From assembly GCF_003790525.1 (NCBI RefSeq), contig NZ_CP033635.1: a stretch of DNA of 64,000 nt; one strand, written 5' to 3'. Each line of letters starts with the position of its first letter. The first letter of the stretch is position 1. Position numbers: made by a program. Shown one piece after another: positions 18,001 to 21,000 of the stretch. Source of the DNA: Escherichia coli. GTDB taxonomy: Bacteria; Pseudomonadota; Gammaproteobacteria; Enterobacterales; Enterobacteriaceae.

Positions 18001-21000
18001 TTCCGGGATGGTTTGTTCCGTTTCAATCACTCTTAATCAGAGAGTTGTAGCATTGCTTAATGGCATGATGCCGTAAAGTTTTACCGCGGTGATTAATGAT
18101 GTGAAGTCAATCCAAATCAACGGAGATCTCTCATCATGAATCAACCAATACACAATGCTTACTGGTTATCCCGTTTTGACAGCCTTCTCGACAGTGCCCT
18201 GTCGCAGCACCGTGCCGTCTCGTTAATCCGGGTGGATTTACGTTTCCCTGAGTATATGCCTGTCACCATCATGGATCCCGATCCGGATTCAGCGGTGATT
18301 TCTCGTTTTTTCGAATCCCTGAAAGCCAAAATCCAGGCTTACCAGCGGAAAAAACGACGTGCCAACAAGCGTGTGCGTGCAACCACTCTGCGTTATTTCT
18401 GGTGTCGGGAGTTTGGCAAGGAAAAAGGCAGGAAACATTATCACGTGATATTGCTGCTCAACAAAGATACCTGGTGCTCGCCAGGGGATTTCAGCGAACC
18501 ATCTTCGCTGGCGACGATGATCCTGGAGGCATGGTGCAGCGCCCTGCATCTTGAGGCCTGGCAAGGCGATGGCCTGGTCCATTTTTCCAGGTGGACGCCT
18601 TCCCGTAAACCAGCATCGTCTGATGCTCGCCCTTCTTCCGATGACACGCCTTTGTCGGGTGGATGTTCTGATACCAGGAAGGCTTCAGAAAAAAAGCCGG
18701 GTGAAGCCGCTGTTCTCTGGATCAAGCGTGGTGATGTGGAAGCGCTGCAGAAAGCCCGGAACAGAGCCAGTTATCTCGTGAAATATGAGACGAAGCAGCA
18801 TGACGGTTCCGGGCAACGTAATTATGGTTGCAGTCGTGGGCCGGGGCGTCTGCTGGATGGCAGGTGAGCCCTGTAAAACGACATCCGGTGCCTGAGCTTA
18901 TGCTACAGGACGTTGGCTGACGCCCTTAGCTCGTTTTCTGAAAAAGTCGTCCTGAAGTCATGCAACGGTATTTTTCTCTGCTTTCGCTCCTGGAAACACT
19001 CCGTCGGTAAAACCTTACTGTCCTGCTTAATGATGTGAACCGAAGTCAACGGAGATCATTCATTCTGAACCTGCATCCGGTGTTCTTTCCCTTATCTTCC
19101 CGTTCTGCTTCGGTTCTTCACTTATTCCATCAATCTCATTCGTAAACCATAACACGTCAGCTCATTCACGGGCAGGACGCGTTGTGGGCTGCGCATAACG
19201 GAGCATATCTTATGAATGCTATCCCTTATTTCGACTATAGCCTGGCCCCCTTCTGGCCATCTTATCAGAGCAAAGTTATCGGTGTCCTTGAGCGTGCGCT
19301 GCGTGAGCAGTCCGGCTCCAGGATACGGCGGATCCTGCTTCGTCTGCCGTGTGAATATGACAGTACCTTCAGCAGCAGAAAGACCTGGTTTGGTATGGAT
19401 TTTATCGAAACCGTCAGTGCGCTGATGAATGCAACCCCCGGACGCGACCTCTGCTGGCTCCTGACACGTCATCCTGAAAAACCGGAATACCACGTGGTGC
19501 TGTGCGTCAGACAGGAATATTTCGACGGCCCTGAGCTGGACCGGTTGATTCTGGATGCCTGGAGCAACGTACTGGGCTTCGCGGCACCGGGTGAAGCAGC
19601 ACCGTACCAGAAACAGATAACCCGGGATGTGGTGCTGGACAGTTGTTCACCGGACTGCGAAGAGAGACTCAAAGAGCTGATCTGGGCGTTCAGTGATTTC
19701 GCCCGCGATCGTCGTGGTGTGCGCGATCCGGAAGCCCGTTACCTCGCCGGTAATCCCTGGTATCCCGTAGCAGGCCAGCTCTGAAAGCTCAGCTCAGCAG
19801 ATTCTCCCGCATTTGCCCAACATTCATAAATCTCACAGAGGACATTCTGACCATGTTGACCTCAATGACAGGTCACGACAGCGTATTGCTGCGTGCCGAC
19901 GATCCCCTGATCGACATGAACTACATCACCAGCTTCACTGGTATGACCGACAAATGGTTTTACAAGCTGATCAGTGAAGGCCATTTCCCTAAACCCATCA
20001 AACTGGGGCGCAGCAGCCGCTGGTACAAAAGTGAAGTGGAGCAGTGGATGCAGCAACGAATCGAGGCATCACGAGGGGCAGCAGCATGAAACGTGTTGTA
20101 ATGCCGGTACGCTGGCAATGTGCAAAATACCAGCGTTGGTATTGTGGAAATCAGCCCTGTCCCTGGTGCTGGCGACCTGCTGCCCCCGTCTGTCATTCCT
20201 CGTTCTTCGCTGTAACAGGCATCGTACCGGTCTCGGCGTGCTTTCCTGCGTACCGACACCGGTTCAGCAACATTCAAGGGGATCAAATCGTGCAAATAAC
20301 CGAAACCGTACTTTCAGAGCCGGTGGAAATCCGGCGTTTTATTCAGCAGGCGGTGGATCACTGGCCGCGTCTGCTGGCCGTCCACTTCACACTCCATTCG
20401 GCAGAAGGAAACATCAACGGACAACAGATTCATGCATTCTGTACTTCCTTTTACCGACAGGTGCACGAGCGTATTACTGAACGTAATCACACGGCCAGTC
20501 CAGCACCACCGGTGGTATTACGCTGGTTGCGGGAACAACATGGAGGAGCAACAATGCGATGCCTGTTGCTGCTCAGCCAGACGAGCATTTGCCATCCACG
20601 GGTCAGTGCCACGGTTGATGAAGAATGTTCGCAACGGGTGGATTTATTGCAACAGACATGGCGGGTGATAAGTGCTGACGGACAATGCCGGGTGGAAAGG
20701 TGTTTTCAGGCTGCCCGGGGTGATACATCCGGCCAGTATATTGCGTTAAAAACAGTTGCATTGTCTCTGGGGTTACCGGTTGTGACCGGTATTACCCATC
20801 GCCCGGTACAGCGCTGTACATTGATTACAGCTCAGTGAACAGCGCTGTTGTGCAGTCAACGAGGTTTTCTGTCTTTTCGTCGGTCATTCAGCATCATTAA
20901 ACGGGTCTCTGCCTCTTTCTGTTCCTGTGGTGTCACTTCCCCGCACGGCTGACCGTTCAGGTTGTAACGGGCGCCACCTGCTATTAACGCACGGTAATAG

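Follow-up and report, generated by a model that had tools for sequence, protein, structure and literature searches.

A YagK/YfjJ-AlpA cassette that very probably belongs to the conserved backbone of Escherichia coli genomic islands

CP4-57 (intA-yfjH-alpA-yfjI-yfjJ ... yfjP-yfjQ ... yfjZ-ypjF) and CP4-6, which carries yagK, are genomic islands of Escherichia coli K-12 in which the gene of a tyrosine integrase adjoins a tRNA or tmRNA gene. AlpA-family proteins switch on island genes or excision, as in CP4-57. The subject of this study is a module that appears to belong to the same type of island: an alpA-like gene and three genes related to yagK and yfjJ, which occupy positions 18136-20838 of a 64 kb stretch of E. 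coli DNA (contig NZ_CP033635.1). This whole stretch is referred to as the window, and all coordinates are window positions. The families that the window has in common with CP4-57 and CP4-6 are AlpA, YagK/YfjJ, the YfjP-type GTPase, DUF932, antirestriction proteins, RadC, DUF987 and a CbtA/CbeA-type toxin-antitoxin pair.

Related gene sets have been described in other elements. In the Pseudomonas tmRNA islands I23, I44 and I55, one end carries an integrase, the middle is taken up by cargo, in many cases defence genes, and a conserved distal region has the gene of a Gp2-like protein beside alpA, plus RadC; intY, alpA, the inovirus Gp2-like protein and RadC have been proposed as their core functions (bioRxiv 10.1101/2024.08.29.610337). 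The set that defines phage-inducible chromosomal islands (PICIs) comprises int, alpA, pri-rep with an origin of replication (ori), packaging or interference genes and induction by a helper phage, and AlpA is the activator of the island cycle (PMC6092414). In the leading regions of conjugative plasmids, klcA and toxin-antitoxin genes are found among anti-defence genes, all on the transferred strand (PMC11541004).

The module of the window is very probably a conserved Rep-like/AlpA backbone of E. coli genomic islands. Besides alpA and a YagK/YfjJ gene, the window has the GTPase-DUF932-antirestriction-RadC-DUF987-CbeA-CbtA block, as is typical of islands of the CP4-57/CP4-44 type, which combine a P4-family integrase with a toxin module of the CbtA type. 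The order in the cassette is a canonical YagK/YfjJ gene (ORF1, for open reading frame 1), an ORF2-type gene, alpA, a decayed zinc-ribbon gene and a UCP030791-type gene (ORF4), followed by a convergent ProQ/FinO-like gene. The cassette is divergent from the GTPase-antirestriction-RadC-CbtA block, from which it is separated by a conserved spacer and a variable cargo slot (Table 1). Profile comparisons place the three genes other than alpA in one superfamily, with one canonical and two degenerate members.

Three YagK/YfjJ-type genes and alpA

ORF1 matches PF11726 (YagK_YfjJ_C) over profile positions 2-170 of 170 (E=3.6e-37; 128.3 bits for a gathering cut-off of 25.8), is 36-38% identical to YfjJ and YagK of K-12, and also matches PF23343 (REP_ORF2-G2P, E=1.9e-10). 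Weaker matches to PHROG replication-initiation families (E from 8e-8 to 3e-4) are confined to the region around its HUH (His-hydrophobic-His) segment; these profiles have 265-501 positions, and ORF1 is about half that length. The alignment of ORF1 with 20 relatives, including the two K-12 proteins, shows conservation of an RVDLRxP strand, of HYH with a run of hydrophobic residues after it, and of YLxK further downstream; HYH and YLxK are kept in all the intact members of the YagK/YfjJ family that were aligned. In ORF1, these elements follow each other as RVDLRFP, HYH (residues 101-103, with H101 and H103) and YLVK, and this is the motif order of the Rep-class HUH nickases. Among the three paralogs, only ORF1 has both the His-hydrophobic-His motif and the subsequent YxxK that characterize Rep-class HUH endonucleases. 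ORF1 has the residues of a Rep-type nickase, and a nicking activity is predicted. In the E. coli lineage, a low-complexity insertion of about 45 residues lies between HYH and YLxK. Several E. coli homologs among the matches listed are 214-aa variants that are frameshifted inside this insertion and lack YLxK.

The earlier note on this DNA, which was made from the sequence alone, described ORF1 and ORF2 as two clear paralogs. They are indeed related, since hhalign links ORF2 to YagK/YfjJ with 98% probability (E=3e-13), but the relationship is anything but clear in direct comparisons: BLASTP detects 25% identity across 52 residues (E=0.001), and the match of ORF2 to PF11726 is below threshold (11.9 bits, E=0.22), with no other Pfam match above threshold. 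An ORF2 homolog that is 36% identical (P0316) does match PF11726, with E=1.4e-10 and 41.8 bits. ORF2 has EYH in place of HYH, and a phenylalanine in place of the tyrosine of YxxK; an HUH fold is predicted for this protein. The mechanical start of the reading frame is the TTG at 19182, upstream of the ATG.

Almost all the called homologs of ORF4 are 182 aa long and start at the equivalent of the GTG at 20290, and PF27752 (UCP030791) is recorded on them. The Pfam scan detects no match of ORF4 to PF11726, and direct pairwise and shallow profile comparisons with YagK give probabilities of 8-38% only. Distant UCP030791 members, which were found through the neighbours of distant ORF2 homologs, match ORF4 by BLASTP (E=2e-11 and 2e-12) and come just short of the PF11726 threshold (E=9e-5 and 0.002; 22.9 and 18.4 bits). 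When they are added to the ORF4 profile, hhalign aligns it with the YagK profile over 149 columns with 98% probability (E=2e-13), and it is this addition that makes the link between ORF4 and YagK solid. The third YagK/YfjJ gene that the earlier note considered possible is thus a true, if remote, relative. ORF4 has MRC at the HUH position and lacks the catalytic tyrosine; its AlphaFold2 model is weak (pLDDT 58), with the same order of secondary-structure elements. A scan of genome contigs with the ORF4 alignment gives two loci only.

The Gp2-like domain, for which a search with hidden Markov models had been proposed, is found in ORF1, while ORF2 and ORF4, under the PF11726 threshold, belong with it at the superfamily level only. 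The alignments and profiles suggest that the two extra paralogs keep the fold but no longer have the histidines that bind metal or the catalytic tyrosine. The PDB contains no sequence relative.

The gene between ORF2 and ORF4 is an alpA homolog, as had been recognized from the start: it matches PF05930 (E=2e-10; 40.8 bits, gathering cut-off 21), its product matches the PHROG family "excisionase and transcriptional regulator" (E=6e-10) and is 25% identical to AlpA from K-12 (BLASTP E=4e-6). The TGA stop codon of alpA (20087-20089) overlaps an ATG (20086-20088), and this ATGA overlap is conserved in other islands. In the window, the ATG opens a long reading frame of 250 codons on the plus strand, which ends at 20838 (its mechanical start is 20044). 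The earlier note proposed that the third YagK/YfjJ gene is coupled to alpA in this way. The overlap exists, but the part that is coupled is a separate gene remnant: the 250-codon frame is an in-frame fusion of a zinc-ribbon remnant with ORF4, found in this lineage only.

The product of the ATGA-start frame resembles the zinc-ribbon (Zn_ribbon_11) proteins whose genes adjoin alpA in related modules (BLASTP E=4e-4 and 1e-4), and has a WxCxxC...CPxC pattern in which one cysteine is replaced by tyrosine in the window copy. The DNA alignment of 20086-20289 shows indels of 16, 19, 14, 17, 1 and 11 nt between lineages, and in the O169:H41 island (locus L005) the frame that starts at the ATGA, which bears a CxxC motif, stops after 35 codons. 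Because the 250-codon frame is a lineage-specific fusion, the overlap is no evidence of a general translational coupling of alpA and ORF4.

Recurrence of the divergent layout and alternative explanations

The three YagK/YfjJ-superfamily genes and alpA are all on the plus strand and the genes from the GTPase to the toxin are all on the minus strand; in this respect, the ORF calls agree with the earlier note. The note took this opposite orientation as a sign that two elements had fused or that an inversion had occurred. However, the same divergent layout is present at several independent places. It is found, with a homologous spacer, at selC in an O169:H41 strain and next to yghD, a different chromosomal site, in strain ECO13. 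A query that joins the GTPase gene, the spacer and ORF1 is covered over at least 80% in one collinear place, with 85-100% identity, in at least 279 of the 5426 complete E. coli genomes. A Klebsiella plasmid of the IncFIB/IncHI1B type has the genes from DUF932 to WYL on one strand and those for Gp2, AlpA, two zinc-ribbon proteins and a UCP030791-like Gp2-type protein on the other. In a distant contig (element L011), whose ORF2 homolog is 32% identical, CbtA to GTPase occupy one strand, and the zinc ribbon, AlpA, YagK, ORF2-type and UCP030791 genes the other. The triad with AlpA, in the divergent layout, is present in the distant element L010 as it is in L011. UM146 has the four-gene cassette in the same order, without an adjacent GTPase block and with other neighbours.

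The cassette as such is matched at 7092 places in 2850 of the 5426 genomes (median of two per genome), and ORF2-type and UCP030791-type genes stand side by side in elements that are only 25-36% identical. The recurrence of the layout across sites, replicons and distant relatives indicates that the orientation is a conserved arrangement and not a local event. In related genomes the module is the continuation of one element, with no change of orientation, and this is what the earlier note had named beforehand as an observation that would speak against its proposal.

A local inversion, or the junction of two independently acquired elements, could have joined an alpA/yagK module to a CP4-type GTPase-toxin module of opposite orientation. 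In K-12, the YagK-type gene of CP4-57 (alpA-yfjI-yfjJ ... yfjP ... ypjF) and of CP4-6 (intF ... yagK ... ykfA ... ykfI) is indeed co-oriented with the GTPase-toxin genes, the island of the window is a mosaic with many insertion sequence (IS) elements, and the UM146 cassette exists without the GTPase block. This scenario is nevertheless very unlikely considering that the junction, the orientation and the homologous 1.3-kb spacer are the same at two chromosomal sites, that at least 279 genomes are collinear, that the layout extends to the Klebsiella plasmid and to an element whose proteins are only about 30% identical, and that the junction in the window is not marked by any IS element or repeat. 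A more ancient rearrangement between subfamilies is possible, given the difference with K-12. The genes could also be decaying leftovers with no present function, the paralogs being pseudogenised duplicates. The loss of the catalytic motifs in ORF2 and ORF4, the degradation of the zinc-ribbon and ProQ genes and the many frameshifted 214-aa homologs of ORF1 elsewhere would fit this explanation. It is unlikely, however, in that the four ORFs are intact in the window and their ratios of nonsynonymous to synonymous substitution rates (dN/dS) between diverged copies are 0.36 for ORF1, 0.15-0.29 for ORF2, 0.03-0.11 for alpA and 0.30 for ORF4; all four genes are under purifying selection. The conservation of the ORF2-type and UCP030791-type pair at such low identity points to long-term selection, and together with the low dN/dS it suggests that the inactive paralogs are selected as such.

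The other two alternatives concern phages. The cassette could be the regulatory and replication core of a phage satellite, PICI-like or P4-like, which is induced and packaged by a helper. AlpA-family regulators activate the PICIs of Gram-negative bacteria (PMC6092414), and a jumbo phage transduces the Pseudomonas islands that have the intY, alpA, Gp2-like and RadC core, which are discussed as satellites (bioRxiv 10.1101/2024.08.29.610337). But genes for an integrase, a pri-rep primase, terS, capsid redirection or interference are absent from the window, the island, with a length of at least about 60 kb, far exceeds the size of PICIs, the cassette is also present on large plasmids, and no bona fide phage record contains an ORF1 homolog, all of which makes a satellite quite unlikely. 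(A lone "phage" record with such a homolog is an unverified, low-coverage contig of 4.5 kb and is not used as evidence.) The earlier note had mentioned alpA as a marker of PICIs; of the features that define them, alpA is the only one present, and the remark of that note that no integrase or packaging genes are visible nearby is confirmed. The name "inovirus Gp2 family" suggests, instead, the remnant of an integrated filamentous phage, with which the matches of ORF1 to PF23343 and to the PHROG replication initiators would agree. This is highly improbable: neither the neighbouring ORFs nor the annotated relatives include genes for coat, single-stranded DNA-binding, Zot-like assembly or secretin proteins, the genes around the cassette are those of the island backbone, no att-flanked genome of a single-stranded DNA phage with this cassette was seen, and the PHROG initiator matches are restricted to the HUH segment of a protein half the length of the profiles.

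The spacer, the leaders and the surrounding island

Table 1. Position of the module and of the neighbouring features in the window
Feature	Position	Strand	Basis or remark
ORF1, YagK/YfjJ ("inovirus Gp2 family") protein, 243 aa	18136..18867	+	PF11726, PF23343, PHROG, motifs
ORF2, highly diverged YagK/YfjJ paralog, 190 aa from ATG	19212..19784	+	profile comparison
AlpA-family helix-turn-helix protein, 78 aa, excisionase/activator type	19853..20089	+	PF05930, PHROG
Start of the ATGA-coupled ORF: Zn_ribbon_11-type gene remnant, then spacer	20086..20289	+	DNA alignment, BLASTP
ORF4 core, UCP030791 (PF27752) family, 182 aa	20290..20838	+	PF27752 on homologs, hhalign
Inverted repeat I4, 17-nt arms, 7-nt gap, spans the ORF4 stop codon	20808..20848		between the convergent ORF4 and ProQ-like genes
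ProQ/FinO-family gene, frameshift-split	20856..21363	-	ProQ domain ORF 20856-21200; N-terminal piece 21175-21363
ORF1 5' leader (~65 nt) with ribosome-binding segment CAACGGAGATC	18073..18135	+	repeat families D1/D2
Second leader copy, 76-77% identical, ~140 nt upstream of ORF2	19007..19069	+	CTG where ORF1 has ATG
Long non-coding spacer (~1.5 kb, no credible ORFs), rich in T on the + strand	16554..18072		AT skew -0.32 at 17001-18000
Variable cargo slot, low-GC 407-aa ORF	15330..16553	+	GC 0.34-0.40
Divergent partner block: GTPase, DUF932, antirestriction, RadC/JAB, DUF987, YeeU/CbeA antitoxin, CbtA toxin, DUF5983, DUF957, DUF4942	9115..15229	-	ORFs, Pfam, RefSeq annotation of near-identical loci
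GTPase gene	14345-15229	-	innermost gene of the partner block
setC	7154-8338		the large island begins beyond
yicL	6120-7043		left end of the window
nlpA	5298-6116		left end of the window

The right-hand 1.3 kb or so of the spacer is conserved with the module: it is about 80-85% identical, with many indels, to the spacers of L005 and L006, which are at two chromosomal sites. The spacer has no Rfam match at the gathering threshold or at E<=1, and its folding energy is no better than that of shuffled sequences on either strand (z of +1.15 and +0.86), so that the idea of a structured RNA was abandoned. The same holds for iterons or an origin: four GACGTT motifs are present on the same strand at 17340-17548, yet they are not conserved in L005 or L006. 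Promoter and terminator scans give counts that match the shuffled expectation. The 82-aa hypothetical protein that RefSeq annotates on the minus strand at 17782-18030 is probably spurious.

The leader of ORF1 is near-identical in L005 and L006. Within the window, exact copies of TTAATGATGTGAA and TCAACGGAGATC occur at the two leaders and nowhere else, and both leader copies are conserved in other islands. The leaders are alike although the coding regions of ORF1 and ORF2 are not recognizable as related at the DNA level. The second copy could be left over from a gene start that was lost, or it could be a cis element that is conserved. A palindromic operator was considered and is not claimed, the arms being just 4-5 bp long.

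On the other side of the cassette, the inverted repeat I4 is probably a terminator shared by ORF4 and the ProQ-like gene. The ProQ domain ORF matches PF04352 with E=3e-21; the two pieces of the split gene show 88% and 61% identity to the matching parts of the 158-aa protein that is intact in L005, and RefSeq annotates the ProQ/FinO gene as frameshifted in relatives. The ProQ domain could still be expressed, judging from the internal ATG that is kept. The LacI/PTS (phosphotransferase system) cargo starts beyond this gene.

The minus-strand genes follow each other, from setC inward, as DUF4942, DUF957, DUF5983, CbtA, YeeU/CbeA, DUF987, RadC/JAB, antirestriction, DUF932 and GTPase. The C-terminal part of the YeeP/YfjP-type GTPase is a partial PADLOC match to a LeoBC defence component (E=3.9e-7). 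At the outer end, the DUF4942 ORF (9115-9765) encodes 216 aa, compared to 278-280 aa in relatives, and a rhuM fragment is annotated in relatives between DUF4942 and setC (about 8400-9100 in the window). These two observations suggest that the distal border of the island is eroded.

The 407-aa ORF of the cargo slot has no match in Pfam, NCBIfam, PHROG or PADLOC. In other islands, the slot is occupied by unrelated genes (339 aa in L005, 327 aa in L011, 322 aa in L014), and for this reason it looks like a cargo hot spot; it is possibly a site for defence genes.

The genes nlpA, yicL and setC at the left end of the window presumably correspond to the flank of selC in K-12. Among complete genomes, the nearest come from poultry and human extraintestinal pathogenic E. 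coli (ExPEC) strains, with 97.8-98.8% identity over the region, and strain B771 is 100% identical across the GTPase and ORF1 segments. The closest strains have a selC-associated AGI-3-type island with a LacI/PTS/transketolase cluster. Judged by these similarities, the region probably lies in a large selC-side island of E. coli of the ExPEC or avian pathogenic (APEC) type. AGI-3 is cited in PMC3325963. The tRNA search finds no tRNA gene in the window, and Rfam no family. No tyrosine integrase is present among the scanned ORFs of the window or in the annotated relatives that cover the remainder; in the homologous island of GF60, an integrase gene of the arm type is at the far end, about 50 kb further on and outside the span of the window. 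Mosaic cargo that varies between the closest genomes (GF60, TUM9803) makes up the right-hand part of the window; transposase genes of the IS256 (Mutator-type) and IS66 families, then MgtC and nucleoside hydrolase genes, are found at 57625-61659.

Proposed role and comparison with known systems

The explanation that best accounts for the whole is a backbone module of CP4-57/CP4-44-type islands with an AlpA-controlled, Rep-like nicking role, and we consider it fairly probable. The mechanism taken by itself, AlpA-controlled nicking for replication or mobilisation, is drawn by analogy and is put forward tentatively. In the model that seems most economical, AlpA would act as an activator or excision-type switch, as it does in CP4-57 and in PICIs, and the YagK protein that looks catalytically competent would nick a cis site of the island, so that the excised DNA could be replicated or mobilised. 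A role as DNA-binding or regulatory partners would fall to the zinc-ribbon protein and to both inactive paralogs. The window copy has an intact cassette, but its zinc-ribbon and ProQ genes have decayed and the integrase lies beyond the window; here, the module is likely to work in trans alone or to be kept for a regulatory role.

Several observations weigh against this explanation. We found no functional study of YagK/YfjJ activity in the literature, the module includes no helicase or primase partner, and no nick site or origin was identified. The duplicated leader may be simply a 5' untranslated region with its ribosome-binding site. Lastly, the K-12 relatives have a single yfjJ/yagK gene in the other orientation, and so neither the triad nor the divergent layout is universal across the wider family.

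A more elaborate version, which we regard as doubtful, is that of a self-contained HUH-type initiator complex, made of one catalytic and two dead paralogs with AlpA and the zinc-ribbon protein, which would nick a site in the conserved spacer for the rolling-circle replication or transfer of the excised island, while the antirestriction-RadC-toxin block would be an establishment or anti-defence region. If true, the pathogenicity islands of E. coli and large plasmids of Klebsiella, and perhaps also the Gp2/AlpA islands of Pseudomonas that a jumbo phage moves, would have an undescribed mobilisation system in common.

The finding is ordinary in the sense that about half of the complete E. coli genomes have the cassette, most often several times over, and that all its genes are already in named families. 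What is added is that both "hypothetical" genes flanking alpA are degenerate HUH-fold YagK/YfjJ paralogs, in a conserved triad with AlpA, and that their opposite orientation is a conserved design rather than an accident. One active-looking and two inactive paralogs persist together with AlpA down to 25-36% identity and on plasmids. The movement of large E. coli pathogenicity islands, which have an integrase and no transfer genes, is poorly understood, and the module is a reasonable candidate for a part in it.

Compared to other described systems, the partner block resembles the leading regions of conjugative plasmids in having a KlcA/ArdB-type antirestriction gene and a toxin-antitoxin pair on one strand; this is a resemblance only, and there is no origin of transfer (oriT), relaxase or transfer gene near the module. 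The HUH initiators of the Rep class, such as inovirus gpII (PF23343) and parvovirus Rep/NS1, differ from the window proteins, which are just 180-240 aa long and have no extension with a helicase or for origin binding; the catalytic residues are missing from two of the three. In PICIs such as EcCICFT073, an AlpA-family regulator is upstream of a replication-type gene, as is the case here (PMC6092414). PICIs, however, are small and carry int, pri-rep with ori and packaging or interference genes, whereas the module of the window shares alpA alone with them: the Pfam, NCBIfam and PHROG scans detect no primase, terS or capsid-related domain in or around it. PADLOC, for its part, assigns the three paralogs to no defence system.

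The agreement with the K-12 islands is in the gene families, as the earlier note had anticipated from CP4-57; the orientation and the copy number of yfjJ are different. CP4-57 and CP4-6 each have one yfjJ/yagK gene, near the integrase and oriented in the same way as the GTPase-toxin genes, whereas in the window the triad flanks alpA, diverges from the GTPase block and is tens of kilobases away from the integrase. Also, yfjI (DUF3987) of CP4-57 is absent from the window. The Pseudomonas islands belong to another genus and use another integration site, and the likeness is one of described gene content. Their transfer by a jumbo phage has been shown, and these islands, with intY, alpA, the Gp2-like protein and RadC, appear by analogy to be the closest functional lead for the module described here.

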